DNA from: Candidatus Bathyarchaeota archaeon
GTDB lineage: Archaea; Thermoproteota; Bathyarchaeia; Bathyarchaeales; Bathycorpusculaceae
Reading direction: 5' to 3'
DNA length: 64,000 bases
NCBI GenBank assembly: GCA_963811105.1
Contig: CAWEPZ010000011.1
Span: 704,001-768,000 of the forward strand
Below, in pieces: positions 29,871 to 54,200 of the stretch; the stretch's first letter is position 1, and each line of letters begins with the position of its first letter. A model generated the notes under the pieces. That model was not told the DNA's origin. It saw only the letters and a list, made by a program, of their open reading frames with translations, and did no database searches. A program made the translations under genes and the position numbers.

Positions 29871-29944
29871 GGGCTGGTAGTTCAGCTGGCATGAACGCTT
29901 GACTTGCACTCAAGAGGTCGGGGGTTCAAATCCCCCCCAGTCCA
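29871..29944 (+). tRNA. tRNA-Ala(TGC), no intron, CCA not encoded
   Basis: Acceptor GGGCTGG/CCAGTCC with G3:U70, anticodon loop CT-TGC-AC, T arm GGGGG-TTCAAAT-CCCCC. Confidence 0.96.
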
Positions 29945-30001
29945 CTTCAACATTGAAAACTCAACACCTCGGTACTCTTAAAGAAAAATTTGTAGCAGTT
30001 C

Positions 30002-30185
30002 TCATTTACGTTTTTTGAAGATTTTGTTTCCATTTAAGTCGCAGACGTATTCAAAGCCTGCTTCTATGAGTTTGCAAGCTTCTTCTTCAGAGTGGGCTAC
30101 TGCGGCTAAGAAGTCATCGTCTTTGATGCTGATAAGCTGTGTATATAGCATGGTGCATTTAGCGATTTGTGGCAATAGGACTTTA
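30002..30185 (-). pseudogene. Tyrosine integrase C-terminal relic 1
   Basis: With frameshifts: LL(G)HKSL..TMLYTQLISIKDDDFLAAVAHSEEEACKLIEAGFEYVCDLNGNKIFKKRK*. It includes the box II H...T..Y pattern of tyrosine recombinases. Confidence 0.75.
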
Positions 30186-33100
30186 GAAAAGGTTTAGACG
30201 AATCAAGAGTTTTTTATAATAGATTCGATTTTCTCATTTTTCTTAGTCTTGATTTAATTGCGCTTCTTTGTCTTTGATGTTTCTTTGCTATTTCATTTAC
30301 GGTTAAATTTTCATTGTATTCAGCAAGCAGTTGTTTGTCTTCAGCTTCAGACCAACTCTCATATGCTCGTGCATATTTCAATCTGATTCTTTCAACATCG
30401 TATGCCTTATTATTTACTCCAGAAAGCAACCCACCTTTTGGTTTTTCTATAAAATTAGACGACCATAGATCTCGATTGTCCGACTCTGTTACTCGAAAGA
30501 AAGATGCTGAACCATTTTTCTCTGAAACGTTCACTATGTATTTCTCTTTAGCGGAAAGCATAGCTAACTTACGCCTGTCCTTTAAACTCGTCATCAAATG
30601 CATTTTTTGCTTTTTCCTTCTTATTTGAAATGCGGCAATTATTTGGCTTCCCTCTTTCCAAACAACGCTTATGAATCTATTTGAACCATCATTTAGAAGG
30701 TTGGGGACTTCATACTCAGTGTAAGAGTTAAAACCTATGTCTTTTCCCATTTTCCAGATTTTTAGTGCAGCCTTTTTTCTAACATCTGTACCCGGTTCAA
30801 CGTGCCAGAATGCTCGAGAAATCATTGATTCATTTGATATATCTGATCTTTGAAGCCCGATGAATTCCTCTTCAATCAATGTTGATTGGTCTTTTTGCTG
30901 GATATTTGCGCTGGGTATTGCTGAAGCGGTGGAGGAGTTGTTTTCTCGAAAAGCCTGAAGTTCAGGTTTGTTTTTTGAATATTCTTTAACTATTTTGTCT
31001 ATTCCAAAGTTTCTAATTAATTGAGAGACTGTTCGTTTTGTTCTAAACGCCATCATACTTTCTGAAGAATCAAATTGAGCAAGAATATTGAGACTGCCAT
31101 AATAAACCACAGAATTATCAACTAAGGCAATCTTGAAGTGGAATCTATCAAAGGCTTCATCGAATCCGAAATCCTTAGAAGCAAAAATGACATGTATACC
31201 CATTTTAGACAAATCATCAATAACTTCATTGTGCTCTTTTTTCCTAGTAATAACATAAATTGGAATATTTTTTCGGATCACCCGCTGAAAATCCTCTTGC
31301 AGTGTTTCAACCCGCTTTCTTGAAATAAATGGACTAAAAATTACCACTCTAGACATTGCCTTGTTCATATCATCTAAGAAAGCAGAGTAAAAGTCGGTTT
31401 GGTCATATATCGTAAATGAAGCATCTTTAACGAAATTATTTTTGTTGAAAGAGGTGCTCATTTCAAAAGGGCAGTATCCGGTTATGTTTGAATCTACGAT
31501 TTCTCCGCTTTGCTGTATTTTTTCAAGTACTTGTGGAACAGCGTCATTAGCCCCAAAATTCTTAGTAATGTAGTCACTATTGCCAACCAAAATGAACTTT
31601 CCAATAGCTCTTGATATTGCAACGTTGATTAGTCTTCCAGGCTCCGATTTTTTGAAAGGGCCCCCGGGTAAGCTTTCCAGGGTTCAAAGGCTTTCCCTCA
31701 ACAAGATCGAATATTATACAGTCTCTTTCGTTTCCTTGAAAACGGTGAACCGTAGAAGCAACAATTAAACTGGGAATCCGCATCCTTATCATCAAGTATT
31801 TTATTTATTAAGTCTGGCTTGAGCTTTGTAAGGTGTAACAATACCAACACTAATTCGAATGCCTTGTTTTGCTCCTTCTTCTCCGCATTTCAGGGCTAAA
31901 CTGGTTGAAACAACCGCTGAATATGGACTCATTCGGGAGTAGGAATTTTTCGGTCTAGATATGAATGGATCGGTGGTTGTTGTATCACAAAATATGAGTG
32001 ATTTGCCCTCAAAGGGAGACTAGTGCAGCAATTTTCTCCTTTATAGGCACAACAGAGTCTGGTGTTACGAGTTTACCATCATAAACAACTTCACTAACCA
32101 AGTTACAAATACAAGGATGCATTCTAAATTGTTCTCTTAGCATTACAAGTCGATTATCTCCGATTTCTAAATTTACTCGTTCCACTATGCCTGCCTGATC
32201 GAAAATATCTCTTCTTAACCATTTTTGAGCTAATGGAGTTCTAGCTTCTGCTATAGGTGATAATTGCCTAAAATCCCCAGAGATTATGTAATGGTTTGAG
32301 CATAGACCAGATAAGAAGAATACATTTGGCAAAAGAGCCATGCTTGCCTCGTCAATTATTAGTGTATCAAATTTTATCTGAGAAATATTAGAGTCTACAC
32401 AAGCTCTAGCTATCGTCGTTCCAATAACAAGTGCATCCTTAATTATGCTATTTCTGCTTTTTTCATCGGTTGTGTTTAACGAGGTTAGTGTGCTCTCTTT
32501 TTCTTTCCTTTCAACTTCCAAATCAGATATTTTTTGTTCTATTTTTGCTAGATTAAAAGCGGTCTGACTTTTAGGGTCCTCAAATAAAGGTTCACGCAAG
32601 TTGCTTTGCCGCATGTCCTTTTTAAGAGTCAATTCTTCAATCTTATTTTGGAAACTCAAAATTTCTAAGTTATTAATTTGATTTTGATTTTCAATTGTTT
32701 TAACTTGATTTTCTAAATGGTCAGTGTTTATGCCTGAAAAAAATCTTCTCAGTATGCTGGCATTCTTGGCTTTTTCTAATAACTGCTTATTGGTACAGAG
32801 CCATGCCCTATTGCTTTCTAAGGTTCTTTTTGAATTTTCTATTCTCTTCCGAAGAGTATTAATCTCTTGTTGAATTAAATCGCATTCTTGCTTCAAGCTT
32901 TCTTGTTTTTGTATTTTTTCTATCAGCACTTTCTCTTGAAGGTCATATTCCTTAATTGTTTTCAACAGTGCTTCTAGATCATTTTCAAGCACTTGAATTG
33001 GGCCTTCCTTTTTGAAAATCTTGCGCCTTTCTGGCACGATATAAGCCAATTTCTCATGCTCAAAGGTCGGGATACCTAACCGAATTATTTTTCCGTCTTC

Positions 33101-33609
33101 AATAAAGGAAACATTTTCTGGGCTATCTAAAAATTTTCTTAGAATTTCATCTAATGCCGCATTAGTATTTGTAGCCAGCAATACTTTTTTTCCAGCTTTG
33201 ATAAGCAGGTTAAGAATTAATGTTAATGTTCTAGTTTTCCCTGTGCCAGGAGGACCCCAAATAAATGTGACCTCTTGACTAAGGGATTTAAGTATGGCAA
33301 TTTGTTGTTCATGATTTGGGTTGAAATTATAATTCTCTTGATTCGGTGTAATTATGAGCGGAAAAGAGCTGGGCTCAGTAAAGCCAAAGAGTTTCAAGCT
33401 TCCATCTAGTATGAAACTATACTCTCCGGACTTTACTCGTTCTAGCTTGCTATGTAGTCTTTCAAGTAAGAAAAAAGAAGTATCTTGCAAAGTTGCTTCT
33501 GCAATATAATCACCCTTGTCTTCTTCTAAGACTATATTGATAACGTGTTCTTTTTTGTCCGCAGAATCAAGTCGACCAAAAATTTCTTCGCCATCAATGT
33601 TTAAGTTAA

Positions 33610-34892
33610 CTGACTGTTTGCGTTTTCATGTTAGTTTGTGTTTATGAGTCTTAGTAGGCTTCGTGTCGATTGATTTGCATTCCGCAACTTATGTATGAAA
33701 AGGTGCATAGTTTTTCTGCGTATCCACTCAACTATTGACTCAAAGGAAAACAAACTCTTCAAAATAGAATACCTAAGAAGTCTACGCCTCAAAACGTCAA
33801 GGAGAGTATAAGCCAGAGTGACTAGGTGCGCGTGTATAAGCGCCGCTTCGCTCGCCCTAAACCTATACTCCCCAAAACCTAAGGCTTTAGCCCCCTTATA
33901 GAAGTCTTCTATCCGATGCCTCTCTAAAGCATGACCCAAAATCACTTCAACACTGCAACCCACCAAATCGGTGCAGAGAAAATGAACATCCCCAGTGCCT
34001 GCCTTAACATTCATCACAATTGAAGAATAGCCCATCTTAGGCAAGAATACATCAGCCTTAACGGCAGAATAAACCTCGCCGTTAACTACAACATCAAAGA
34101 AACCGCCCTCTGAACGCATTTTATCGAAGAGCTCATCTATTCGGTATCTCTTTTCCTTGTAAAACACGATTCTATTGCTCTTAATTTCGCCTATCCAGCT
34201 ATATCCATCTGCTTTGCACTTGGAAGCCATCTCTTGGCAGGTGAACCAGGAATCCCACAGCCAAATTGTCTTCTTCGCCAGTGGAGTGTGCTCATCTATG
34301 ATGTCGCATGCTAACTGCAGCCTCGTCTTAAACTCAATTCCTTTCTCGCTGCATTTCTTTTGGTTGCCATACAGTTTCAAGCCGTCAGGAACTGCCACAT
34401 TGTTGTTTACGTAGAGTGATGTGACGTAGTCGTGACTCAGTACTGTTCCCATGGTTGAGGAGTGATTGTAGCAGACCATCTCTGTGTTTTGACTGTACTT
34501 GCGGCATACTGTGTCGTCGATGATCTTGTACTCAAATGAGTTGTCTATGTTTGCTTCGCTCAAAAGGATGTTCTTGGCTTGGTTGGCTACGGCTTTGATG
34601 TTCCATTTTGGGTTGGTTATGAATCGGTTTAGGCTGCTTTGGTCTTTTCTGTCGATGAAGAGTTCATTGACGCTCTTAACGTCGTGTTCTCCGTTTCCAG
34701 CTACCATCAGGCCTAGCTCGCTTCGGCAGAAATTCTCGTACTGTGGTTTGCTGAAGAATTTCTTGAATTTTGAGAAAAGGTTCTTAATCCTGCGGGGTAC
34801 GCCCGCTATAAAGCCAAACATGAACTACAATATGTAATCCGCTCAAGAAATAAGCGTTGGACACAAAACAAGCCAAAAACGCAAACACTCAG
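33610..34892 (-). mobile_element. IS701-family insertion sequence, 1283 bp
   Basis: 17-bp terminal inverted repeats CTGA(C/G)TGTTTGCGTTTT (1 mismatch); TTAA target duplication at 33606-33609 and 34893-34896. Confidence 0.9.
33631..34821 (-). CDS. IS701-family DDE transposase
   Basis: QSSLNRF, IIDDT, WDSWF, RHRIEDFYKGAK..LGF motifs; intact ORF inside the inverted repeats. Confidence 0.9.
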   Translation of the reverse strand: MFGFIAGVPRRIKNLFSKFKKFFSKPQYENFCRSELGLMVAGNGEHDVKSVNELFIDRKDQSSLNRFITNPKWNIKAVANQAKNILLSEANIDNSFEYKIIDDTVCRKYSQNTEMVCYNHSSTMGTVLSHDYVTSLYVNNNVAVPDGLKLYGNQKKCSEKGIEFKTRLQLACDIIDEHTPLAKKTIWLWDSWFTCQEMASKCKADGYSWIGEIKSNRIVFYKEKRYRIDELFDKMRSEGGFFDVVVNGEVYSAVKADVFLPKMGYSSIVMNVKAGTGDVHFLCTDLVGCSVEVILGHALERHRIEDFYKGAKALGFGEYRFRASEAALIHAHLVTLAYTLLDVLRRRLLRYSILKSLFSFESIVEWIRRKTMHLFIHKLRNANQSTRSLLRLINTN

Positions 34893-35220
34893 TTAACTTC
34901 AGTATTTTGTTTGCGGTTACACCAATCATCGGCATCATCCGATAAAAAACGATAAACATGCAAACTATTGCCAGCGTAGATTCGGCGTCCTTCAAACATT
35001 TCTGTTTTTTTACTAAAGGGGTGTCTCTTTACTTCTGCTATCTCGTCTTGTAAAGCTGCCTGTAGCTCGGTTATCAAAGCGTTCTTGTCAGTGGAACCAG
35101 CTGTAGCACTCCAGCCAATATTAGAGGCTCTATGTTGCTGAGAGGTCAAGCATTTGACTCCAACTATAGATTATTCTTTGACAATAAAATGCTTTACGAA
35201 CTTTAGATTCACTCAATTAA

Positions 35221-35280
35221 AAAAAAGAGAAGGCGCGGGTGATATCTCCACTTTAGAGGGGGTTCAACTCCAACCTCCTA
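35221..35280 (+). repeat. Island repeat copy 1
   Basis: aaaaaagagaaggcgc-GGGTGATATCTCCAC-tttagagGGGG-TTCAACT-CCaacctc. Confidence 0.75.
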
Positions 35281-35792
35281 CATTTTTATAAGTGAAAAGT
35301 GTGCGCTTCAAGTCAGGTGAATATAGATTAGATGGTGACTGCTGAAAATCTGTCCCTGTTCAAAAACCAAGTGTGTTCGACATGGGAAATGTGAAGAATG
35401 CACACAATATCACTCAGAAAAAGGCAAACTACCCTTCTGCAAAAGAACAAAAACTTCTTTGCTTGGGTTTCTGAAGAAAACGCAAGCTTAGAATTTGAAC
35501 AGATTTCTTTGATTGGATTTTTAAGAAGAATTTAAACCAAAATCTAAACGAATACCTTGTTAAACCGTCTCGTATGAATCGCACGGTAGCTTTCTTAATG
35601 CTTATGTTTAATACAACGGAGGTGTACGAAATGTCTCAAGCCAGTTAGCGCTTTGCATTAGTTTGCAGAAAGCTGACAGAAAAGAGCAAGGTGCTAACAA
35701 GATATTTTTTATTAAGGCTTAATGAAGCGCGCTGGGTGAGCCGACATCTATTTAACTCTATAACAAACAAGTAATCGAATTGGTGAAAAGAA

Positions 35793-36071
35793 GTGAGCAA
35801 GGTTGAGAACGGGTTAAAAGAAAAGATTGAGGAAATAATCAGGCAGAAGGCAGAATCATCTGTAACAGATGAGCTTTCAGACTCAGAACACGGGTATGTA
35901 GATGCTCTGATATGGCTTAAAGAAGGCTCAATCGAGCTAACTAATGAAGGCATTGGAAAAGAAATTGTGGAGCGAACCTATGCGGACAAAGACTCGAGCA
36001 AAGAATACTGCGATGGCTACGACTCTGCACTTAAACAGGTATTAAAAATGATAGTTGAATTGAAAAAATAG
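35793..36071 (+). CDS. Hypothetical acidic protein
   Basis: 92-aa ORF with GGTGA upstream; internal GY-x-D/S-AL duplication (GYVDAL, GYDSAL). Confidence 0.55.
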   Translation: MSKVENGLKEKIEEIIRQKAESSVTDELSDSEHGYVDALIWLKEGSIELTNEGIGKEIVERTYADKDSSKEYCDGYDSALKQVLKMIVELKK

Positions 36072-36213
36072 TATATTCTAAGCGAATCACATTGAAATTT
36101 ACTAACTAAATCGCATTAATGCCCTTATTTAAAAACTGGAGCGTCAAACTGTTTAAACAAAAAAAGGGAAACGCACGCTTTGGGTGTTAAACGTTTTTTT
36201 GCTTATCGATTCC

Positions 36214-36290
36214 AAAAAAAGAGGGTTTGAGGGTGATTTCTCCACCTGACTGGGGTTCAAGTCCCAACTATCGGATTCAAGTTCCGATTA
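36214..36290 (+). repeat. Island repeat copy 2 (two T-loop hairpins in tandem)
   Basis: aaaaaaagagggtttga-GGGTGATTTCTCCAC-ctgactGGGG-TTCAAGT-CCC, then atcgga-TTCAAGT-tccgat. Confidence 0.75.
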
Positions 36291-36313
36291 CACAGAAATT
36301 TCTTTGAGCTTCC

Positions 36314-37066
36314 TCATTGACCAACAGTTTTGACTTTGCGGAAGTTAACGAGAACTAACGCTAACGCTGAAAGTCCTGCCCCTGCACCGCCGAAAACAGC
36401 CATAATAAGACTAGTGTTTTCTGTTTGATTTGGAGGAATGTAAGTAACATCTGGATTAACTGTCGGAGCAGCCCCTTCGGTAATGTTTGCATTGATGCTC
36501 ATGGCGCCCCGAGTATCGGGTTGTATGCCCCATCCGTTATTAAATGGATTGCTGAAACTCCCATAGTCATTGTTGTTGTGGATTCGAACACCAGTGCCGC
36601 TTGTTACACTGACCGTTAAGTAATCATCTGAGCAAACGGCTAATGCATATTGACGGCCAATAGTTACAGGAACAGGAGAAGGCAAGTGGAAAGTTACCCA
36701 ATTCATTGACGTTGAAACGTAAGTTTTAGTTGAGGTCCCAAGCAAAGCGCCAGGGTTTCCTGCTGAATCAGTGGCGTAGATTGCGGTCATAACGTTTCCT
36801 GGCGTATTAACCCGAGCGGCCATTGCTGTTATAGAAACCACAGTTCCAGATTCTTGAGCCGTAAAAACGGATGCAGATTTGTAATTAGCATCATTAACAT
36901 CGGTGAAATCGCCAGGTGTTGAAATGCCTAAGTGTGTATTGCCAACGCTTAAAAGGGAAACTTGCCCTAAAGAACCGCTTACACCTATCAAAAACACTAC
37001 TGCACAAACCATGTATATTACGGTGAACACCAAGTTAGTGACGTTCTTTTTATTTTTTGAATCCAA
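36314..37066 (-). CDS. Hypothetical surface protein (N- and C-terminal TM, beta-rich middle)
   Basis: Hydrophobic termini; ...AIYATDSAGNPGALLGTS... beta-sandwich-like core. Confidence 0.65.
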   Translation of the reverse strand: MDSKNKKNVTNLVFTVIYMVCAVVFLIGVSGSLGQVSLLSVGNTHLGISTPGDFTDVNDANYKSASVFTAQESGTVVSITAMAARVNTPGNVMTAIYATDSAGNPGALLGTSTKTYVSTSMNWVTFHLPSPVPVTIGRQYALAVCSDDYLTVSVTSGTGVRIHNNNDYGSFSNPFNNGWGIQPDTRGAMSINANITEGAAPTVNPDVTYIPPNQTENTSLIMAVFGGAGAGLSALALVLVNFRKVKTVGQ

Positions 37067-37184
37067 TATTAATACTCTTCAATTAGAAAAAAGAGGACGG
37101 TATTTAAACTTAAGCGGAAGATTCTCGTGCCCTCATGACCCGGCGAAGAAGAACAGGACGACAACAGCGAAGGTGCGACAGTTG

Positions 37185-37310
37185 AAAAAGCCTTGGGCGC
37201 CTTCAAATTAGGTAACGTATTCAAAGCCTGCTTCGACTAAGCTGCAGATTTCCTTTTCTGTCTTGGCGACTTTGACATGTATTTTGTTTCGACTTGGAAT
37301 AATGCTTCTT
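37185..37310 (-). pseudogene. Tyrosine integrase C-terminal relic 2
   Basis: EALFQVETKYM/KVAKTEKEICSLVEAGFEYVT*FEGA; shares acgtattcaaagcctgcttc with relic 1. Confidence 0.65.
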
Positions 37311-37470
37311 TGCCTCAACGCATAATGGCAAACTTGCTGAACTTGACACGCTTTGTTAAGTTGAGTTTTCAAAAACAGCTAAAGTTGACAATTAACGTTA
37401 TTGAGTTTTTCAAAAAACTATATAATAATTCGTGCGATAAGAGGAATCAGCAAGAGACAGCGAGCGTTAT

Positions 37471-37704
37471 TTGGAGATAGAGAGAATGCAAACTGAAGAA
37501 TTAGCGTGTATAGCAAAGAAAGTAAGAAACACTTTGCCTAACGTGGAATCGTTTCCAATTGCGACAATCTATACCACAATCAAAGAGCAAGAGAAAACGA
37601 ACATGAATTTACCAGACTTTAAAGAATTAATTTATCATCTTACTGGCTGGGACATATCATTCCAAGTTATACGCAGACAACTTGAAATAAACCAGATAGT
37701 ATAG
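37471..37704 (+). CDS. Hypothetical protein
   Basis: 77-aa ORF; no recognisable motif. Confidence 0.4.
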   Translation: MEIERMQTEELACIAKKVRNTLPNVESFPIATIYTTIKEQEKTNMNLPDFKELIYHLTGWDISFQVIRRQLEINQIV

Positions 37705-37790
37705 TGAGAGCCTGCGTTAGGTTGGGTGTTAGTCGATTTCCTTGTCGTCCAAAATTGTCGAAGTAATACAAAGGATTAGTTCAGATTAAA

Positions 37791-37857
37791 GAAAAAAGAA
37801 GAGGAATCACGGGTGCTATCTCCACTCTGGAAGGAGTTCAATTCCCATTCCAACTCC
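37791..37857 (+). repeat. Island repeat copy 3
   Basis: gaaaaaagaagaggaatcac-GGGTGCTATCTCCAC-tctggaaGGAG-TTCAATT-CCCattcca. Confidence 0.72.
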
Positions 37858-37899
37858 AATGCTTCTTAATCCCTCACCAACCGCTGTTTAGCTTCAACG

Positions 37900-38700
37900 T
37901 TATGATAAAGCTGTTTTGAAGAAATCAGCCAAGTCAACAGTCTCAATTTCCGAACCACAATGCTCACAGGTTTTTAATGATTTCAAAGATGTCTTATCGT
38001 TAATCTTTAATGTTCCATTACAGTGTGGACAACGATACACCGCAACTATTCCACCATCCTTAATCTGTTTAAGCAACTCATTAAGGTTAAAGGAAACCTC
38101 TGTTCGTTTTACTATCATCTGTTTATCTTTTTCTCTAAGCGATTTGGCTTTTTCATACATTTTCAGTTGTTTCTCGTAGATTTTAGCAGCATCCAGAGGT
38201 CTGCCACATTTTTCAAGATTAAAAGCAAGAGCAGAATACCCACGCTTAACGAAATCCCCAATATCATGCCCACATTCGGAATCAAGCAAACCATTGTCAC
38301 CCAAATCTACGAGTATAGCACGATAATCCTTTGTATCGTTTGCAATAGCCCAACTAATCAAGTTTTTTGCCTCTTGACTAATCTTACTATCTAATGCATT
38401 GAGAACTGCAGAATAAAACAGGCTTCGAAGATTCTCACCAAACTCTTCGATGTCAGTTCCAATATCCTCTAATGGATAATCCATGACTATTTGCCAAAAT
38501 CTTTCGCTGCAAAACTCAGAACAGAAACTTAGCAATAGATATTCAGCCTCTTTTTCTTCAGTTTCCATTGTGCTCTTGACTGAAAGCCAACCGATCCACT
38601 CAGGCAAACACTTTTTGCACGTAACTTTGCCACACCAATCACATTTTTCAGATGGAGTAGAGAGCAAGTAAGATGCTCCACAATTTGGACATTTACCCAT
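37900..38700 (-). CDS. Multi zinc-ribbon hypothetical protein
   Basis: CPNC, CDWC/CKKC, CSEFC, and C-terminal CPHC...CEHC; start taken at MGKC (38700). Confidence 0.7.
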   Translation of the reverse strand: MGKCPNCGASYLLSTPSEKCDWCGKVTCKKCLPEWIGWLSVKSTMETEEKEAEYLLLSFCSEFCSERFWQIVMDYPLEDIGTDIEEFGENLRSLFYSAVLNALDSKISQEAKNLISWAIANDTKDYRAILVDLGDNGLLDSECGHDIGDFVKRGYSALAFNLEKCGRPLDAAKIYEKQLKMYEKAKSLREKDKQMIVKRTEVSFNLNELLKQIKDGGIVAVYRCPHCNGTLKINDKTSLKSLKTCEHCGSEIETVDLADFFKTALS

Positions 38701-38890
38701 TATAGCACCAGCAGGCAATAAGAAATAACATTGTAGTTCACAATTTATAAAACCTCTCGGTATGCATTTCTCCAAAAAAACTAATTCAGATATCCGATAT
38801 TTCGGAGAAGTTTATTACAGCTCAAGTAGATGCTAAAATTGCTTTAAAGAATTTTGCAGACTCTAGAAAAAGAAAGAGAGAATGTTTTTG

Positions 38891-41395
38891 CTATTGCTTC
38901 TTGCGTAATGTAATCATCAATAGAGCGCCCACAACGGCAACTGCGATTATTACAGCTATGACCCCAGCTACAATTGTCATTGTGTAATCAGGTATTTCTT
39001 GCAAAGGTGCCGTTGTTGAAGTTGCTGTTGGTGTCGATGCTACTGATATTGCGGTTGTTGCTGAAGAGCTACTGTAGGAATCATCGCCAGCGAAGGAAGC
39101 TATAATCTTGTAGTCTCCTTCAATTGGTGGAGTCCATGACTTGCTAAATGTTCCGTAGTAACCATCAGTTGTAACAGTTCCTATGTTTTCATAGTTGCCG
39201 TTTGAATCAAGTGCTGTCAGTGTTACTGGAACGCCAGTTATTGTTAGGTTGTGGTCAAGTCCGTCAATTGGGTGCTGGAAGTGCAGGTACTCCATTTGTA
39301 CTGTCATTGAGTCTCTTGAGACGCAAGGTGTGTCTGTTTGAGCGGGAGACTGATCCAATACTGTTCCCTGAATCATCGTAGCTCCTTGTGAAACGATTGC
39401 GGGATTTGCAGTTACTGTAGTAGCGCTAAGACCCTTGCCGGCTACATACAAATAACCGGTGTATACACTGTCGAAGGTAAGGTAGCCGTCTGCGATTGCT
39501 CCAGAGTTGCCTCGACTGGTTATGTTCCATATTTGTTGCCCTGTTGTTGCGTTTACAGCATACATCGTCCATCCTCTTGCGAGAGGTGATGTGGGCGAAT
39601 GTTCACCGTTTGAAATAAATAGCTTACCATCTGCAATCTGCGGGTTGGCTCCAAAGAAAGCCATCGATGGGTACCACGGTGACTCGAATGGTCTGCAAGG
39701 TGCTTCAAAATGCCAAGCTATTTTGCCTGTGTCCCAGTCAATCGCGTACAGGCCTGCGTAGGTGAAGTCATAAAGTAGACCGTAAGCAGAAGCTGTTGTA
39801 TAAGCTCCGAACACTCCCCAGGGCCAAGATGCTGCCTCACTCTTCCAAAGCTGTTTTCCTGACAATGAATCCCAGCAATACCAAAATCCGTTATCAAATC
39901 GAACAGCAAATTTTCCATGGTCAGCGCATGCAGTGCTTCCACTAAAGATTGGATAGCCAACGCCTGATGAGATGTTCCATAGCAGATTTCCTGTCGTTAA
40001 ACTTGCCGCTTGTATGTAGACGTCAGTTGAAATTCCTGTGGCATTAGGCGATATGGAAATTGTAGTAACTGAGACGCCTGCTTCAAAATCGCAAGTGCCT
40101 AAGCTGCTGAATGGAAATGTTATGTTACTTACTATTCTAGATTTTAGGTCGGTAGCAGTTCCGGCAGTTGTCCAGTTGACTAGGTAATATTTGGTGTTTG
40201 CTCCAGTACCTATCGTCTGAACGCTTAAGGCGAGTTCGTTAGAGTAGTAAGTCGCGGAAGTCAATGGGGAAGTAGACATATTTAACGCGATAGCTCCTGT
40301 GAATGGATCGATCTTTATTAGCCTACCATTGCTGATTACTATGAGCTGCGGGGGGGTTACGCCTGCTGAAGATTGTGTGGCTCCTGGAATGACAGGGGTT
40401 CTAAAGCTTGTGTCGATTCCTGTTGGTGCAGGTACATTTGTTAAGTCCCAATATATCTCGCCGGTGCGCAAGTCGTAGCATTCTAGAACGCTCGTAGCGA
40501 CGCTTTGTTCAGTACCGTTAACTGTTTGCATCATTGGTTTTGTGATTGCTTGATAAGCCCGTCCTTGGAAGATTACGCTTGGTGTTCCCGCATACCCGCC
40601 TTCTCCGCTTCCAATGATCATCGATCCGAATTGCCCTCCGATAATTCCCGCTAAAGAACCTTGCCGTTTCCAAAGAATATGTGCAGTGTTTGGTGCTTGG
40701 ACGTATGGGGTGAATTTGTAGTTGCTTGCATATGTGTTGGTGTCCGCTGGCCAGTCAGGTCCTCCTCCTTGTCCCGAGAAGGGGTAGTTTCCTCCAATGA
40801 CATACCATTCTCTGTTTTCAGGAGTTATTGGTCTTGTCCAGTAACCTGTTGGGAGTGCTGACCATGGCCATGACATTACAGGTTGTTGCTGCACTGTTAA
40901 TTCTACGTCTTCAGAAGTGGAAGGCTTGTAGTAAGCTGAGCCCAGATACGTACTACCGGCTACTGGAGTATCATATACTAATCCTTGAAGGTAGTATCCA
41001 GCTGGGAAGTAGTTTCCAGCGAAGAAGAACTTTATTTTCCATGTCCCGACTTGATCTACGATATAATTAAACCACGCTGTCGTGTCACCTTGATAAGAGT
41101 TCATTGGTCCAACTGTGTCTACGGTTCCATCTGGTTTTGTTAGTGTGACTGTGAAGCCTGATTGAGCTCTTGTTACGTGAACTGCGGGTTGAAGCCAGAT
41201 GTTGATGAGCGCTGTTTGGCCGACACCTATGGGATTAGGACTGACGCTTAGATAAGCAATTGTGTCTACTGACGCACTAGGAGTAACACCGGCTGGTAAT
41301 GGTCCGCCTGTTACAGTTTGTTTTGGGCTTCCTTCAGCAACCTGCCCCATAACAGGGTGGATTGTTGGTGCAAGAGTAGTTATCACTAGGATCAA
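38891..41395 (-). CDS. Surface-anchored PQQ-like beta-propeller repeat protein
   Basis: YLSVSPNPIGVGQ, LPTGYWTRPI, repeated TGxxxW blades, C-terminal PDYTMTIV-TM-RKK. The start codon is unclear. Confidence 0.82.
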   Translation of the reverse strand: MILVITTLAPTIHPVMGQVAEGSPKQTVTGGPLPAGVTPSASVDTIAYLSVSPNPIGVGQTALINIWLQPAVHVTRAQSGFTVTLTKPDGTVDTVGPMNSYQGDTTAWFNYIVDQVGTWKIKFFFAGNYFPAGYYLQGLVYDTPVAGSTYLGSAYYKPSTSEDVELTVQQQPVMSWPWSALPTGYWTRPITPENREWYVIGGNYPFSGQGGGPDWPADTNTYASNYKFTPYVQAPNTAHILWKRQGSLAGIIGGQFGSMIIGSGEGGYAGTPSVIFQGRAYQAITKPMMQTVNGTEQSVATSVLECYDLRTGEIYWDLTNVPAPTGIDTSFRTPVIPGATQSSAGVTPPQLIVISNGRLIKIDPFTGAIALNMSTSPLTSATYYSNELALSVQTIGTGANTKYYLVNWTTAGTATDLKSRIVSNITFPFSSLGTCDFEAGVSVTTISISPNATGISTDVYIQAASLTTGNLLWNISSGVGYPIFSGSTACADHGKFAVRFDNGFWYCWDSLSGKQLWKSEAASWPWGVFGAYTTASAYGLLYDFTYAGLYAIDWDTGKIAWHFEAPCRPFESPWYPSMAFFGANPQIADGKLFISNGEHSPTSPLARGWTMYAVNATTGQQIWNITSRGNSGAIADGYLTFDSVYTGYLYVAGKGLSATTVTANPAIVSQGATMIQGTVLDQSPAQTDTPCVSRDSMTVQMEYLHFQHPIDGLDHNLTITGVPVTLTALDSNGNYENIGTVTTDGYYGTFSKSWTPPIEGDYKIIASFAGDDSYSSSSATTAISVASTPTATSTTAPLQEIPDYTMTIVAGVIAVIIAVAVVGALLMITLRKKQ

Positions 41396-41701
41396 AGCAA
41401 TTGCTAAAGTTACATATCGTTTGATTTTTTGCGTTTTGGTATTTCTCCTTTTTGTTGTGAAAATCTTACCGAAGAAAGCACTTCGCTTTTTACGATAAGC
41501 ATTTTGCTAAACAAGCCTATAACATCTATCAACTTATAAGACTAAGTGGAAAGTGACCGCTGACGACAAAGCGGTTAGTGATGGAGGTTTAAATTGGAAT
41601 TATTCGATAAACTAAGAGAATGCCGAGGCTTGCGTCAACAAACCTTGAATGTGCATTAGCTCCAAACCATTTTCAACATTTTAGAAACACCCTGAGCTTG
41701 A

Positions 41702-42409
41702 TCATGTGATTTTAAAGTAAACACGTTTGTTGTTTTTCCCTTTATTTTCAGCTCTTACCAATTCTATTTTACCCACTTCTTGAAGACTGCGCACATGAGT
41801 ACCTCCATCAGCTTGCCTATCCACACCGACTATTTCCACAACGCGAAGTAACGGAATATCAGGTGGCAAAGCTTCCGCCATCTTAATTATACCCGGGATT
41901 TTCATCGCTTCCACTTTCGGCAACTCGTACCATTTTACAGGAATATCCTTGCTGAGGAGCTCATTCGCCTTAGTGACATATTGGTCTAAGATTTGCTTGT
42001 CGAAGTTTTCAAAGTTAAAATCAAAACGGATACAGTCTTCATCAAGCTGATTGCCAGTGACAAGAGCACCAGTTCCGACGCATAAAAGTGAGGCAAACAA
42101 ATGAGCAGCTGTATGACTCCGCATAAGTTTGTACCTTCGTTCCCAGTCTAGGACGCAGCGAACTCTGTCCCCATTTTTAAGACCTGCTCGATCTACCTCG
42201 TGAGAAATCTCTCCCGAAAACTTTCCCACAAAAACCACATCATAACTTTCATTATCCTTAACAATTTTGCCAGTATCCCAAGGTTGACCTCCTCCTTTGG
42301 GGTAAAAAATGGTTTGATCAAGGACTACGTATTTTTGGTCCTTAACAGAAACTACAACGGCGTCGCACTCTTTGAGATAACTGTCGTTTAAAAACAACAT
42401 TTTTGTCAA
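41702..42409 (-). CDS. alaXM: Alanyl-tRNA editing protein AlaX-M
   Basis: LDQTIFYPKGGGQPWDTG, MRSHTAAH, QADGGTHV, KGKNNKRVYF; start at TTG 42409 or ATG 42400. Confidence 0.9.
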   Translation of the reverse strand: MTKMLFLNDSYLKECDAVVVSVKDQKYVVLDQTIFYPKGGGQPWDTGKIVKDNESYDVVFVGKFSGEISHEVDRAGLKNGDRVRCVLDWERRYKLMRSHTAAHLFASLLCVGTGALVTGNQLDEDCIRFDFNFENFDKQILDQYVTKANELLSKDIPVKWYELPKVEAMKIPGIIKMAEALPPDIPLLRVVEIVGVDRQADGGTHVRSLQEVGKIELVRAENKGKNNKRVYFKIT

Positions 42410-42680
42410 CAAGAAGGCTGCCTCATTAATACAATCATATATTCTATTTATGATCAAAAGTCTATATTTGTTTATTTTACCTAAAAAAACTATTGTCGAA
42501 CAGCACCCGCTAAAGACTTGCATAACGAAATTACTAGTATTTTCCTGGTTCGAAAGATTCATATCCTGAATTATCATGGCGAAAAAGATTATCTGGACTT
42601 ATTTTTTCCGTGTATAAAAGGAAAAAGTTACAAGATATCTTGGGAAAATCTATTCTAAGGTGAAATATCAAAGATTATGA

Positions 42681-42740
42681 AGGAAAAAGAAGAAGTTGCG
42701 GGTTACATCTCCACTTCGACATGGGTTCAATTCCAGTCTA
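42681..42740 (+). repeat. Island repeat copy 4
   Basis: aggaaaaagaagaagttgc-GGGTTACATCTCCAC-ttcgacatGGG-TTCAATT-CCagtc. Confidence 0.72.
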
Positions 42741-42919
42741 CACTAAAATTGTAAAGGAGTGCGTTCTTTATACCTATTATTGGCCGTGAACCTATCATGC
42801 CAGCCGGTGATAGAAGGAAGTCTTATAGGGTAAGATAACCTTTATTTTTTGACGGCCCTTTCTTGATTTAGCGATAAAAAAGCCGATTCTAAAGATAACT
42901 CCAAGGCGTTGCAGTAAAT

Positions 42920-44704
42920 ATGATAGAAATTAGTCAAAATGAGCATCTCGATGCGTTGTTGGTGTATGTTAGAGTGGTTTCTTTGCCGTGGATATTTCCT
43001 CGCCAATCACAATTGGGTCTTTATTATCTCGCACAACAAGCAAGTGAGAAAGGTTTCAAGGTTCTTGTAGATAATTTATCTTCGAACGACCATATTGGTC
43101 AGAGGATAAACCGACTTCTAAATGAACATAGCTGTCGTCTTGTCGGGTTTTACGTAGATCAAGATAACATGTGGACATTAAGGAGGGTCTTGCCTCCGCT
43201 AAAAAGGTCAATACCTGACTTAAGCATTATACTCGGTGGACCTCAAGTCACCGCTGATGCTGAATCTGTCCTGAGTTTTATTCCTGAAGCAACCTGTGGT
43301 GTAATAGGTGAAGGAGAGGCTACTTTTGTTGAGCTGCTCGCTCTTCCTTCACTCTGCCTAGAGAACCTAGAAAAATGCAAAGGCCTTGCATTAAACGATA
43401 ATGGGACAATCCGTAGGACGCCTCCAAGGGAGCCTATTGATCCGTTAGACTGCCTTTCTATCCCTGAACGCAAGAAACTTAGTACAGACCCAAACAACGA
43501 ACTTCCCACGATGATTACAGGAAGAGGCTGCATTGGACAGTGCGCTTTTTGTTATGAGAGCAAGCACGGAAAACGCCTTCGTTTTCACTCAGTTCAGCGA
43601 AGCCTAAAAGAGTTTGATTATCTGGTCCAAGAGTTTGAAAAAAGCTATATCACAATATTGGATGATTCTTTCGTAACCAATGTAAGCAGGTTAAGAGAAT
43701 TCTGCATGCAACTCATAAGCAAATACGAAGGAAAAGTGAAATGGTTCTGCGAGTCGCGTGTTGATATTTTAGATAAGAACCCAGACCTGCTTCCGCTTAT
43801 GATTGAAGCAGGACTTATCCGTCTTCAAGTGGGCGGTGAGTCGGGAAATCAGCATATTCTCGACTTATATGGAAAAGGGACAACGCTGCAACAGATGATA
43901 TCAGTAGTTGAGTCAGCAAAAAAGAACGGACTTTTATCGCTTTATGCAAATTTCATCATAGGAGGCGCAAAGGAAACACGTGCTACATACCAAGATACAT
44001 TGAATTTTGCCCTTAAACTACTGGACCTTGCACCTGGGTGCATGGAGATTGGGAGCTCTTTCTACACTCCATACCCTGGAACACGCATGTACAAAGATCC
44101 CGAAGCTTTTGGAATCGAAGTTATTGATAAAAATGTTGTAACAGGCGCAGGAGATCAACACGTTTTTGTTAGGACTAAGGAACTTTCCAGATTCGATATT
44201 CTGGATATAAATGTTGATTTTAAAAGTAAAATTGAACGGAAAATGATTGAGCTATCTAAACAGCTTCCTAAAGAAGTGATTTACAAACATTTCCAAGCAT
44301 TTGATAAATGGGCTCTTATTACAGATTGGTATAAGATTTTTAGGAACGAAAACGCCAACGTTTATTCTTATTTTAAGTCAATCTCTGTTGGATCTTGCAA
44401 GAGATTTGAAGAGATTGCAAGAAAGGAGTTATCAGAAGCTTATCCTTGTCGAACTACAGAACTTGTAACCTCAAAGGATGAAAGGTACATAGTTCGTATT
44501 TTTGACGGTTCACTATGTATATTAGATCCACTTGAAAGTACGATTCTTGAACTGTCCGCTGGTAAACTCAGTTTTGACGAAATAATAACAATTATTGGCG
44601 ATCGTGTTCCTGAGATTTCATTAAATAAGATACGGGAAGCTTGTATTGTTCGATATGAAAAATTCGAAAGGGAGTGTCTCGTTGTTTGGAGGATCGGAGA
44701 TTAA
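42920..44704 (+). CDS. Cobalamin-binding (class B) radical SAM enzyme with C-terminal PqqD/RRE-like domain
   Basis: ILGGPQVT...GEGE B12 domain, GRGCIGQCAFC, GESGNQ, TPYPGT; the tail LDPLESTILELSAGKLSFDEII resembles a PqqD-type wHTH. Confidence 0.85.
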   Translation: MIEISQNEHLDALLVYVRVVSLPWIFPRQSQLGLYYLAQQASEKGFKVLVDNLSSNDHIGQRINRLLNEHSCRLVGFYVDQDNMWTLRRVLPPLKRSIPDLSIILGGPQVTADAESVLSFIPEATCGVIGEGEATFVELLALPSLCLENLEKCKGLALNDNGTIRRTPPREPIDPLDCLSIPERKKLSTDPNNELPTMITGRGCIGQCAFCYESKHGKRLRFHSVQRSLKEFDYLVQEFEKSYITILDDSFVTNVSRLREFCMQLISKYEGKVKWFCESRVDILDKNPDLLPLMIEAGLIRLQVGGESGNQHILDLYGKGTTLQQMISVVESAKKNGLLSLYANFIIGGAKETRATYQDTLNFALKLLDLAPGCMEIGSSFYTPYPGTRMYKDPEAFGIEVIDKNVVTGAGDQHVFVRTKELSRFDILDINVDFKSKIERKMIELSKQLPKEVIYKHFQAFDKWALITDWYKIFRNENANVYSYFKSISVGSCKRFEEIARKELSEAYPCRTTELVTSKDERYIVRIFDGSLCILDPLESTILELSAGKLSFDEIITIIGDRVPEISLNKIREACIVRYEKFERECLVVWRIGD

Positions 44705-44885
44705 ATTCCTTCCGTATGGATGAAATGGAAGTGTTGCCAGGAAATTCATTCACATTTTCTGAAAATTGATTTCTGAAAATATTTAAGTATTTGCGATAGT
44801 AGATGTATTAGTAGGATTTACTTCTTAACTCAAAAGTCTTGTTATCCAATAGGAACATAAAAAAAATTATCAACGCAGAAAAGAG

Positions 44886-45278
44886 GTGAGTTTAATGGAT
44901 AAGAAAAATAACGGTGAGAAGATCAAGAAGCAAAAACTCCGCGTAGAGTTTGAAATGAGTCCTGAAGATGTAAAGAGACTACTCTCCTATGGCAAAAAGA
45001 AGTCGATGAAAATTAGCGATGAAGAACTAAGTAGACTCGGTAAAGAAGGCGCAATCAAAGCATCAGATTACCTCGACAACACGCAGGCTAGTTTTGCTTC
45101 TCGCGCAGCATCGGGTTGGATAAGTGAGATAAGCGATAAAGTAAGTGATGAATTATCGGAAGCTAGCGATCAAATTCATAATCCAGAAGTACAGGAAGCA
45201 GCAGCTTTCACTGTAGAAGTTGCCCTTGTAGCTGCAAAGAGGACTAAAGAATCTACCGAACAACGTCCCAAAGAATAA
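44886..45278 (+). CDS. Hypothetical 130-aa protein, candidate RiPP precursor
   Basis: GAGGTGA RBS (start may be ATG 44895); ISDEELSRLG leader-like motif; Ser/Asp/Glu/Ala-rich C-half. Confidence 0.6.
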   Translation: MSLMDKKNNGEKIKKQKLRVEFEMSPEDVKRLLSYGKKKSMKISDEELSRLGKEGAIKASDYLDNTQASFASRAASGWISEISDKVSDELSEASDQIHNPEVQEAAAFTVEVALVAAKRTKESTEQRPKE

Positions 45279-45364
45279 TGCGATAGTATAAGCTGAAATC
45301 TTTCAAGAGCCTATACTCTCCTCCACTATTCTTTACCCATAACTTAATGGAGATACATTTTATC

Positions 45365-45415
45365 GAGGAAAAAATCATGGGTAAGCTGTCCATTTGCCTT
45401 TAGGTTCAAATCTTG
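45365..45415 (+). repeat. Island repeat copy 5 (degenerate)
   Basis: gaggaaaaaatcat-GGGTAAGCTGTCCAT-ttgcctttAGG-TTCAAAT-CTT; same spacing, weaker match. Confidence 0.45.
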
Positions 45416-45786
45416 TCTGCATAACGCTGAACCAAAAAGAACCTCTTGATACAATAATATGTGTTCTATTCTCAGAAATTAGGTTAGTAAAGAGTATTGG
45501 ACACGCATTAAGTTTGGAGAGTGTGTACTTACTCTTACAGGAAGATGCCACCTACAGCATAACTTAAATTACTAATCAATTCAAAGCTCCAATTATAGAT
45601 GAATAATTTCTTTTTATCCGCTTTTTTAAGCATCCTGGACATTCCATTTTTTGCTTCACCAGCCTCCAATTGATAATGGGAATCTTACACCTTTTGATTT
45701 GATGTAGTTTGTTACCACGCTCTTTTGAGTCATCCAAAAACCCAGTCTATCAAAAAATCGGTGATTTAGACAACTCTTCAAATTAC

Positions 45787-45855
45787 AAAAAGAGGGAAAT
45801 GCGGGTGTCACCTCCAACAGGGCATGGGTTCAAATCCCATAGTCCACTTCAACAT
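45787..45855 (+). repeat. Island repeat copy 6 / att-like junction with the tRNA-Ala 3' end
   Basis: aaaaagagggaaatgc-GGGTGTCACCTCCAA-cagggcatGGG-TTCAAAT-CCCat-AGTCCACTTCAACAT; the last 15 nt are identical to 29939-29953. Confidence 0.8.
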
Positions 45856-45901
45856 CACCAACAACAAACACGGACTGTTACAAATATTTTGTAAATGTTC
45901 A

Positions 45902-45985
45902 TCATTTTCGTTTCCTGAAGATTTTGTTTTGGCCAAAGTCGCAAACGTACTCGAAACCTGCTTCGATTAACTTGCAGGCTTCTCC
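45902..45985 (-). pseudogene. Tyrosine integrase C-terminal relic 3
   Basis: EACKLIEAGFEYVCDFGQNKIFRKRK*, nearly identical to the end of relic 1. Confidence 0.75.
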
Positions 45986-46312
45986 CTTTGCATTTCTCCC
46001 GCACCACCCTTTTCTCGCTCCAACGAAACCGAGAACTCAAGATGCCAAAAACTGCCTTATTGCCTTGACCAAATATGTTTTGGCTGTTTTGTTCGAAGCA
46101 AAATATTTCGGCATGCCCAAATGCTCAGCGAAATTTATTTTCGGAGACCCTATTAACACAAAATTTTGGTTTTCATGGAACAACTCGCGGAAGACGAAAG
46201 CTTTTCAACTGATACGATATCAACCGTTATTCTAAATGATTATTGTTGATTCATAACCCTTTTCTACGTCTTCCAAGCAAATTTACTTGCGCGCTTAAGG
46301 CGGTTACTATTC

Positions 46313-48532: not shown

Positions 48533-48564
48533 AAAACACTATAAAATCAATCGTTATCCCTTGA
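48487..48564 (+). pseudogene. Truncated response-regulator receiver N-terminus
   Basis: Out-of-frame overlap with the kinase end: MGNHSRIFVVDNKSIKNTIKSIVIP*, resembling the receiver beta1-alpha1 pattern (ILVVDD..IR..L). Confidence 0.5.
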
Positions 48565-48904
48565 TCTGATATTACGGGATGAAATAGGCAGGTAAGCACG
48601 CTGCTTTGTCCATCTATTGAGTCATACAATTTTTCAGGAGACATCCAAAATACTTTACCGTCCATTATATTCATGAGAGAGCAAGGGGTATGACAATTCT
48701 AACACGTTAAACACTAGCTTTTGGAAGTTATTCGCGATTCTTGTCTTGAATACTATTTTGGTTTCAGTGAACTAAATGACCGACAAAAGATTTGGCATTG
48801 TCGGGACTACAAATATAAAATAGATAATGATAGACAAACGAACGAAAAGAAAGAACTGGAAAGTAGCATAAACAATTAATAGCAATTTCACGCTTTCACG
48901 AATT

Positions 48905-49324
48905 ATGAAAGTCGCAGTTTTTTACCTCTCAAGAACTGGAAACACAAAGCGTTTTGCAGAAGCAATAGCTGAATCACTAAAAACTCCGCTTTTTGATATA
49001 ACACTAATTGATCCTGAATCACAAGCAGACTATGATTTGCTAATCATCGGCACGCCAGTAAATGGTTTTAGAGCATGCCCCGAAGTGTCATCATTCGTTC
49101 AAAAACTGCCAGAAGGAGTAAATAAAAAAGCGATTCTTTTTTGCACCTACGCAATAGCAAAAGGAAACACCCTCAAAAACCTTGAACAAGAGCTTTCAAA
49201 AAAAGGATACATGACTCTTTTAGCAGTGTCTAAGAGAGGAGTAAAACCGAACAAAAACGACTTCGAGGATGCCTTAAGCGAAGTAGCCACCTGCATTAAA
49301 CAGGTCCAGCAAACTCAACAATAA
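48905..49324 (+). CDS. Flavodoxin family protein
   Basis: YLSRTGNTKRFAEAIA FMN-binding loop; DLLIIGTPV. Confidence 0.88.
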   Translation: MKVAVFYLSRTGNTKRFAEAIAESLKTPLFDITLIDPESQADYDLLIIGTPVNGFRACPEVSSFVQKLPEGVNKKAILFCTYAIAKGNTLKNLEQELSKKGYMTLLAVSKRGVKPNKNDFEDALSEVATCIKQVQQTQQ

Positions 49325-49565
49325 TTTAATATTTACGACATCGCAAGCAAATACCTGTCAAAGCAATCAATACGAACAAAGAAAACTCGACAATTACTTG
49401 TGGATGACTAATTTGAATTTGCAGGGTTTGCAGGTTCTACAAAGTGTAAATAAGGAACCCTAAAGGAACAAGACTAAGCAACATGAATGTTGTGCCAATG
49501 GTTCGCTTAGTTTCTGGTTTCATTTCAATCCATTAAGAGCACAGATAATTGTTGACTTGTGGCTT

Positions 49566-49740
49566 TCAGTTTTGCCCAGTTGCCGGGTGTTTCTGTTTCA
49601 CGATGTCTGAGATTCTTAATTCTGGATGATGGCATCGGTTCTTTCGAAAGGTTATTTTTCCCGCTTGTACAGCTTCTTTTGGACACCATTGAAGACAAGC
49701 AAAGCAAAGTTTGGTTGAGTTCTTGCCATGATTGCTGCGC
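49566..49740 (-). pseudogene. C-terminal fragment of an EFR1-type ferredoxin
   Basis: CFACLQWCPKEAVQAGKIT...RCHHPELRISD with no intact upstream portion. Confidence 0.55.
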
Positions 49741-49881
49741 ATATAAGAATTTTTAAGTGTCAAAGAAAAAGGCAAAGCCAAAAACATTTCTAGAATATTA
49801 CACAATTCTTTTTTCATTTCAATATGTAGTCTAAAGAGTATAACTATAATAGTTTGCAGGACAGTTTTCGAAAGGATAACA

Positions 49882-50982: not shown

Positions 50983-51802
50983 TGAAGATGAGAAAAAAGC
51001 AGAGCTTTCTCGTCAATAGAACAACTGGTAGGTTCGGCTTCTAAACAAAAGGCCCGCCCAAATCCTCAGTCTCGGCATAGCGATCGCTGGATTTGATCGC
51101 CGAACATCGGAAAGCGAATGCCGTTTCTCCAGACCCTCTTACTTTTACATTGGAGGAAGAGGGCTGCGGCTGATGCCGATGGAGCCTTCTGTGGGCTCTG
51201 ACTTACAAAAATGAGGACTGGAATCAGTGCCATATGTGGAGCTAGGAGACTTTGTCTATGACGGAAACCTGAGGATCCATTGACATCATATTAAATTCCT
51301 GCTGATACTCCACCTACAACTAAAACTACCACAACAATTACGGCGAACAAAGTTCCTTTTACAATCCATATTTTTCGACATTAATTTTCCTCAAAATCTC
51401 ATTAACATAACTTTGATTAAAAACAATCAGACGGAAATACACCCATCTGAAAATCAACCTCGAAATATTTTTAGAACGATTTGTTCCATAATTGGACTTA
51501 TTGAGTTAAGAATAGATAACATAGATAGGAAGTAACTGAAAAAACACTGCAAAGCCCAATTAGTCCCAACCACATTTTTACTGTATTCATTTCTTCCGGC
51601 TCCATACAATTTAACACTTAATTCTTCAGGAAATATAAGGCATGTTTCAGCTCTGGAATATACCAAGAATTGAAAGCAACGGTAAGCAATATTACAACTG
51701 AAAGAATATACGCCTTAAGGCTCGGTCGGACGCTTGACAAAGCCTTTTTGGATTACAAAAATAATTATAAGACAAAACCATACTTGAAGGTCCATTTATC
51801 GT

Positions 51803-54112: not shown

Positions 54113-54200
54113 TTCTTAATCACTTGATAAGGTTTTAAAATGACTTAGTCCAAGTTGTATAAATAGCTTCATCATCTAGTTTAAGATAGTGAAATTGAGT

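Follow-up and report, generated by a model that had tools for sequence, protein, structure and literature searches.

How did a row of unrelated gene blocks, divided from one another by the same short repeat, come to lie behind a single archaeal tRNA gene? The question is raised by a stretch of 64,000 nucleotides (nt) from Candidatus Bathyarchaeota archaeon (GCA_963811105.1, contig CAWEPZ010000011.1, positions 704,001 to 768,000), as a whole called the window, in which a tRNA-Ala gene is followed by several copies of an element of about 55 bp. An earlier note on this DNA had taken the element for the attP-like junction (att, attachment site) of small integrative units that insert serially at one tRNA and thereby build an integron-like array. 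According to the analysis presented here, the repeat is probably, though by no means certainly, the attP/attR junction of elements that form a clade in Bathyarchaeia and whose tyrosine integrases target the T-arm of tRNA genes, and integrase-less units would have been mobilised in trans onto its earlier junctions. In the following, G000 denotes the source genome, other G numbers the genomes of relatives and L numbers the loci of relatives.

A repeat finder returned five copies (family D2), all on the plus strand as the earlier note had counted them: site 1 at 35219-35290, site 2 at 36213-36269, site 3 at 37793-37849, site 4 at 42682-42738 and site 5 at 45785-45855, with 62-79% identity to the reference across 53 nt. 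Each copy runs from an A-tract through (C)GGGTGAYATCTCCAC and 7-8 nt to GGGTTCAANTCC, in agreement with the layout first described, in which the spacer had been put at about 7 nt. In its general form, a site consists of an A-tract, about 6 variable bases, the palindrome (C)GGGTGAYATCTCCAC, a spacer of 7-8 variable bases and the T-arm sequence GGGTTCAAATCC. Two further observations of the note were reproduced: 45841-45855 of site 5 is identical at 15 of 15 nt to the 3' end and flank of tRNA-Ala (29939-29953), and the stretch ahead of the tRNA (window 1-29870) yielded no profile match at E<=1. The weak sixth copy that had been claimed near 45365 has the correct spacing, but its 6.4 bits are within chance, which leaves 45362-45415 (+) as a possible decayed site. 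In addition, a weak site that had gone unnoticed (55776-55832, +; 13.8 bits, genome-wide E 0.14) is located just ahead of the first gene shared with relatives and lacks a T-loop. In arm tests, the right arm of site 5 proved to be of the tRNA-Ala type and that of site 1 of the tRNA-Leu type, none of 200 shuffles being as good for the latter.

The nature of the site becomes apparent from intact elements in relatives, where the suspected link to tyrosine integrases was borne out. Of the 40 tRNA-Ala loci of relatives, 4 have a whole integrase immediately behind the tRNA, a fifth integrase being cut by a contig end, and the parent integrases exceed the cut-off of Pfam family PF00589. L297, 14.7 kb long, has genes for integrase, primase and a helix-turn-helix (HTH) protein, and its far end carries a perfect palindrome, 8 nt and then the repeat of the tRNA 3' end; the far ends of L298 and L301 are similar, with palindromes that are degenerate or split. 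A direct repeat of the tRNA 3' end marks the far boundary in L297, L298, L301 and L351 as well as site 5 of the window, where 45815-45983 is 83% identical to the joined ends of tRNA and integrase in L273 and L301. Since intact elements in relatives end in a variant of the site, the succession of A-tract, palindrome, 7-8-nt spacer and T-arm is a junction of the attP/attR type, and in this respect the initial interpretation is upheld by parents at the same tRNA. Among 40 further loci with an intact integrase, the integrase 3' end meets a called tRNA in 31 and an intron-bearing tRNA in 6, the rest comprising a contig end, a truncated arm and L341, in which a junction replaces the tRNA. Parents with an N-terminal zinc-ribbon integrase were found head-on behind tRNA-Ala, -Leu, -Cys, -Pro, -Arg and -Ser, and in a quick tree the integrases cluster by target tRNA.

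In 245 site-bearing loci, none of 29 integrase matches is full length, and the stubs measure about 100 to 900 nt. The window holds three such C-terminal stubs, all on the minus strand, none intact and none recorded in the earlier note: two are of the tRNA-Ala type (30005-30169, with 86% identity over 50 amino acids (aa) to the intact integrases of L273 and L301, and 45903-45994) and one is of the tRNA-Leu type (37187-37339). No integration or transfer gene was found in the window blocks by open reading frame (ORF), Pfam and integrase comparison. A unit of 297 bp between two sites in L273 (~1700-2000; +16430 to +16727 relative to the tRNA) carries only an integrase-like zinc-ribbon ORF. With respect to the site itself, the right arm matches a tRNA 3' arm in 135 of 349 sites (control 9.7), the matched arms being those of Leu, Ala, Arg (miscalled as Gly by ARAGORN), Pro, Ser and others. 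The tRNA repeats start at the GGG preceding the T-loop, and none of 352 spacers is identical to the tRNA's own 8-mer; together, these observations fit a crossover in the T-loop, while the latter rules out a pick-up of the target overlap in the style of Tn916.

Sites are strongly oriented with respect to tRNA-Ala. In the 40 relatives' loci and the window, 43 downstream sites lie on the strand of the tRNA and 2 on the opposite strand; at least one site is present in 20 of the 40 loci, a total that includes L292, on the wrong side of the tRNA, and L277 and L289, which end within 1 kb. Hence the proposed position downstream of tRNA-Ala is supported by the strand bias, yet it does not account for the motif at large, which occurs genome-wide: in the genome of 3.49 Mb, an iterated profile detected 38 sites that score 15 bits or more, and the reversed sequence gave none. 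Of these, 25 have another site on the same strand no farther than 6 kb away, and none has one on the opposite strand at that distance. Measured from a tRNA on the same strand, 9 sites are found no more than 10 kb downstream, where random placement gives 2.2 on average and at most 7, and 12 within 30 kb (random mean 5.7, maximum 13); the random placement ignores the clustering of sites, and the other 26 are farther away. In the profile scan that the note had called for, the association with tRNAs is thus partial. Additional tRNA searches revealed no anchor for a five-site array at C11:974-978 kb nor for a four-site array at C2:424-429 kb, and for smaller groups anchors may be hidden by contig ends. 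Serial insertion at one tRNA, as originally envisaged, is not supported by these data, given that only site 5 is of the tRNA-Ala type, that site 1 is of the tRNA-Leu type and that no tRNA lies within 30 kb of most of the arrays in this genome.

Beyond this genome, matches to a sequence model were obtained within the genus for 111 of 120 genomes at a threshold of E 0.01, weak ones among which may be T-arms of tRNAs, and within the class for 53 of 141 genomes, spread over 12 families, at E 1e-4. With a strict pattern, 68 of 78 titled records among the matches listed were Bathyarchaeia-named, and none of 16 genomes outside the genus was matched; viral carriers were dismissed, the same pattern having matched one viral contig only. 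Core motif positions are 92-99% conserved over 449 sites, a set biased by its seed pattern, as most external loci were seeded by the strict pattern.

The recurrence of small integrase-less blocks across arrays and in differing orders suggests a gene-swapping network that reaches beyond one tRNA. Unit 1 (35236-36173, +), which contains a 92-aa ORF (35793-36071) and an A-tract half site at its end (36159-36173), has a copy of 94.7% identity in a tRNA-free array of the same genome (G000:C11:974546-975471) and matches, some of them partial, in 32 of 120 genus genomes; elsewhere, its right-end site is present in 9 of 15 loci by profile and in 11 of 15 by eye, and its neighbours vary. In the tRNA-Leu array of G012, unit 1 and the surface-protein unit (36253-37191, -) occur in the order opposite to that of the window, the latter as an 84% copy that begins at a site. 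Of 163 units delimited by sites, three families are shared over their full length, one of them through a 669-bp unit that is duplicated at 98.7% inside one array, from site to site. As anticipated for a comparison of relatives, breaks in cargo homology coincide with sites, and breakpoints occur in all three conserved blocks. In contigs of run X5, one joint skips window positions 37803-45801 (short side 38 nt, 85% likeness), which would fit if blocks 3-4 had been lost from between sites 3 and 5, although the source may be another strain or a repeat; among the sequencing runs screened by window words, none contained half of the words.

The sites themselves are mosaic. Of 14 independent groups, only 2 have a spacer that goes with the block upstream, where about 90% would be expected under joint inheritance, the flanks being 92% identical; with the block downstream it goes in 4 of 12. 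The first spacer, from A-tract to palindrome, follows the upstream block in 5 of 14 and is swapped in 9 of 14. Since the spacer rarely tracks the upstream block, exchange has also taken place left of the T-loop. A single cut just left of the palindrome was considered and dropped, sites without A-tract being recurring arm variants.

How such arrays might arise is best described in terms of trans-mobilised units that resemble cis-mobilizable elements (CIMEs) and reuse earlier junctions. The T-loop would serve as the overlap of the crossover. The palindrome would represent a pair of accessory (arm-type) sites, because one half of it is found again beyond the core: single half-sites occur in 21 of 42 right arms, at positions fixed within each family (random windows 2.0, shuffles 1.8). 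In attP of phage lambda (compare PMC8371274), accessory sites lie on both sides of the core; by analogy, the half-sites here may flank the core as accessory sites, and it is our guess that the zinc-ribbon domain binds them. Elements would shed their integrase and replication genes but retain both arms, giving units of about 1 kb, which would be moved by integrases encoded at other loci of the cell or by elements that enter it. As all T-arms share GGGTTCAAATCC, any earlier junction could be used as a target, and such reuse would lead to mixed-tRNA and tRNA-free arrays. Finally, host recombination would act on the short conserved blocks that adjacent sites have in common, so that neighbours are lost or swapped and the sites become mosaic; deletions of this kind between neighbouring sites explain the spacer data without any new enzyme activity. 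As an aside, the palindrome axis precedes the T-loop by 18.5-19.5 nt in all sites, which equals the distance of the anticodon centre in short-arm tRNAs (18-19 nt).

Several observations weigh against this account. The position of the cut in the T-loop is deduced from sequence comparison; the strict half-site is absent from half of the right arms, and the symmetry between spacer and arm is weak (z ~3 at the best offsets). Arm typing gave no significant match for sites 2-4, of which site 3 resembles tRNA-Cys by eye. The only close intact integrase seen in G000 shares 40% identity with the tRNA-Ala type and has no adjacent tRNA. Unit 1 lacks the right-end site in 4 of 15 loci, and the radical S-adenosylmethionine (SAM) cargo of the window has a match in 1 of 119 relatives (G103), with no surrounding site. 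No circular joint was found among the 15 joints listed, out of 24, for contigs of four runs from related strains. Moreover, some of the breakpoints are confined to 4-7 nt at the edge of the palindrome, which is short for unaided recombination. As a side observation, short tandem repeats were seen downstream of the tRNA-less intact integrase (G000:C14:6000-6220).

The latter breakpoints lead to a second explanation, since the data do not separate deletion by host recombination from an enzymatic cut at the palindrome edge. The units could be shuffled as cassettes, with the palindrome as core site and the spacer as homology-free overlap, so that a cut at the palindrome edge would excise and reinsert single units; we regard this as considerably less likely. 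The second enzymatic crossover on which it depends is itself doubtful, and the same holds for the wider system it would imply, a network without integrons in which one integrase clade with a shared arm motif, whatever the tRNA, would cut at both T-loop and palindrome edge and would excise, copy and reorder one-gene units among dozens of sites per genome, tRNA-free arrays included. The rarity with which the spacer follows either block is in line with such shuffling, as is the median site-to-site distance of 1.2 kb (n=189). A cut directly behind the palindrome would also suit the left end of L193/L208 and both ends of a copied unit in L052; the shared spacer of L052, however, is common in its array, rendering the left end ambiguous. 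It is further favoured by 66 of 489 sites that lack the T-loop, several of them sharing other right arms, and by three symmetric 11-6-11 variants built from the palindrome half (L071:6352, L089:1256, L091:15504), which have a dif-like geometry and unrelated flanks. On the contrary, one cut at the palindrome edge leaves the swapping of the first spacer in 9 of 14 groups unexplained, spacers are never tRNA-derived, and the half-site also occurs singly in right arms, as expected of an accessory site. A stand-alone recombinase considered as dedicated enzyme (G000:C2:523877-524791) was rejected, being present in 8 of 120 genomes only; its N-terminal frame overlaps an intron-bearing tRNA-Leu, an arrangement that recalls split integrases of the Sulfolobus spindle-shaped virus (SSV) type. 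As for the sites without T-loop, examples such as G000:C1:110479, C13:193491, L065:9408 and L160:3112 show recurring non-tRNA right arms behind the palindrome, and A at palindrome position 3 is favoured in these sites (in this genome, 7 of 17 against 1 of 25 are without T-loop, p 0.004). Other targets of the integrase clade may be marked by them.

Plain scars of serial insertions at this tRNA, decayed in place into units that no longer move by themselves, would explain the integrase stubs, the broken helicase gene and the degenerate sites, and correspond to the island model of Prochlorococcus in the accessible text of bioRxiv 10.1101/2020.12.28.424599. A tRNA-Leu-type arm and stub within a tRNA-Ala array, the close copy of unit 1 in a tRNA-free array and the conservation of core positions, subject to the seed bias mentioned above, nevertheless make this explanation improbable. 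Still less can be said for a regulatory box or small RNA, be it a transcription-factor palindrome, a terminator or a tRNA-like processing signal, which we consider very unlikely: palindrome and A-tract do resemble an operator and a minus-strand terminator, and T-arm-like hairpins can form, but cargo homology breaks at the sites, sites occupy the ends of intact elements, the flanking genes have both orientations and the Rfam families above threshold are tRNA only. The A-tract may nonetheless act as a terminator in a circular form. Integron attC sites, which would make this a cluster of attC sites lacking integron-integrases (CALIN), are practically dismissed, for the integron-like character claimed by the earlier note holds for the layout, with short cargo between same-strand repeats and no adjacent integrase, but not for its components: a structure-conserved hairpin was rejected owing to weak covariation and folding no better than shuffles (z -0.66 to 1.17, both strands of five copies), R'' and R' boxes occur in 3 of 442 sites (control 3), and the IntI model TIGR02249 gives 40-74 bits for four integrases against a cut-off of 265 and no match for a fifth protein, the integrases also scoring under the XerA cut-off.

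The island in the window begins with tRNA-Ala(TGC) (29871-29945, +; ARAGORN, Rfam), the T-arm of which is the primary target and forms the attL side. It is followed by the right (P') arm of a tRNA-Ala-type element (29946-30004, +), best matched by the arms of intact elements of this type (0 of 200 shuffles as good), and by the first integrase stub. A broken UPF1/DNA2-like helicase gene with a phospholipase D (PLD) domain fills 30214-35149 (-) in several frames (Pfam AAA_11, AAA_12, PLDc_2; PADLOC MkoA 2e-31); it resembles MkoA of Mokosh and is possibly former defence cargo. It is interrupted by an insertion sequence (IS)-type element (33601-34892, -) with a DDE_5 transposase ORF (33631-34821; Pfam), absent from the earlier note, of which an 81% copy lies at G000:C2:474478. 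Between sites 2 and 3, where a single block had been assumed, two units adjoin whose joint has lost its site. The first of them encodes a DUF4082-like surface protein (ORF 36314-37066; Pfam score under the cut-off). The second (37187-37810) starts with the tRNA-Leu-type stub, contains a 77-aa ORF (37471-37704, +) and has relatives behind a site or tRNA in L379 and L381; units bearing this ORF occur in many genus genomes at 76-88% identity and directly behind an integrase stub in two loci. Atlas searches offered no explanation for the 92-aa or the 77-aa ORF, the 92-aa clusters being archaeal and unnamed.

Downstream of site 3, 37900-42577 (-) encodes a Zn-ribbon protein, a PQQ-type beta-propeller surface protein and an AlaX-like editing protein (ORFs, Pfam). 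Surface proteins of the PQQ type (38891-41395 and 57549-60101) have dozens of paralogues genome-wide, and the placement of the AlaX-like tRNA-Ala editing gene (41702-42577, -) within a tRNA-Ala island may be due to chance. Behind site 4, a B12-binding radical SAM enzyme and a 130-aa ORF (42920-45278, +; Pfam) are possibly a peptide-modifying pair, which is rare (2 of 120 genus genomes). Most window blocks are flanked by sites at both ends, two joints being without a full site. Past site 5 and its stub, 46313-55602 is probable further cargo with two PAS histidine kinases, flavodoxin, radical SAM and others (Pfam), with short matches only in relatives' tRNA-Ala loci. Since the weak site at 55776-55832 is followed by a YciI-like gene (55930-56259, -; Pfam), the first gene common to relatives downstream, the island probably ends at about 55.8 kb and spans about 26 kb. 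In L287, the YciI-like gene is located 138 nt from the tRNA start, and the intergenic stretch does not align with the window. Outside the island, a 106-nt tRNA that probably bears an intron (10956-11061, -; G000:C11:714956-715061) was matched by Rfam and missed by ARAGORN.

Comparable arrays are known from other prokaryotes. In Dehalococcoides, according to the accessible passages of PMC3146451, islands at ssrA stand in tandem with T-loop repeats between them and a conserved 15-bp motif just upstream of each, and about half are without integration module and were proposed to be cis-mobilizable, in which the islands are comparable to the present arrays; they differ in using a serine recombinase and one target gene and in having no duplicate islands within a strain, whereas the present family involves a tyrosine-integrase clade, at least six tRNA targets, one arm motif, unit duplicates within a genome and many arrays without a nearby tRNA. 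Site-specific accretion of streptococcal integrative and conjugative or mobilizable elements (ICEs, IMEs) gives CIMEs, comparable to the present units, that have lost integration and transfer genes, kept their att sites and become stacked at a tRNA 3' end (PMC5704250, accessible passages). These are described as moving with an adjacent active element; none adjoins the units in the window, and here units appear to relocate singly between array specificities and to leave mosaic sites. Tycheposon islands of Prochlorococcus are also seeded by tRNAs and contain partial tRNAs, integrase fragments and cargo pushed outward, but belong to another domain of life and, in the passages accessible, share no arm motif across targets (bioRxiv 10.1101/2020.12.28.424599). 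Among archaea, the cryptic integrated elements (CIEs) of Thaumarchaeota and other elements with tyrosine integrases resemble the present ones in targeting tRNA genes, in short att repeats, tandem integration and primase modules, and in that some lack an integrase (PMC6563490 and PMC8371274, in part); the term "arm-type" does not occur in the accessible text of the latter review, whereas the half-site, being repeated to either side of the core, may point to a lambda-like attP here. In SSV-type split integrases, att lies inside the integrase gene, whereas the parent integrases described here are whole and end before the tRNA repeat. Archaeal integrons and CALINs share short cargo between repeated recombination sites, often without linked integrase, but here there is no attC fold, R box or IntI and the site is tRNA-derived; neither "Bathy" nor "tRNA" occurs in the accessible text of bioRxiv 10.1101/2022.02.06.479319. 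Papers on Bathyarchaeia viruses (PMC10848311, PMC11705971) mention integrases and, in the passages accessible, no such sites, and a literature search that did not extend to supplements and closed journals, and hence does not establish absence from print, yielded two provirus surveys and no further paper.

Taken together, the repeat represents a real, class-wide family of att junctions and a variant of the known accretion of tRNA islands, characterised by an arm motif common to different targets, by arrays that are mixed or free of tRNAs, and by the mosaic make-up of the sites. Bathyarchaeia are archaea of sediment and soil, abundant and for the most part uncultured, and to our knowledge their acquisition of accessory genes has been little described. 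A single 55-bp profile marks cargo blocks in 12 of their families and ties them to named parent integrases, and profile and parents supply a defined pair of enzyme and site for testing. If the arm-site reading is true, an archaeal integrase with a lambda-like attP would be at hand; and if the second crossover should prove enzymatic, the arrays would constitute a cassette system derived from tRNA-targeting integrases instead of IntI and attC.

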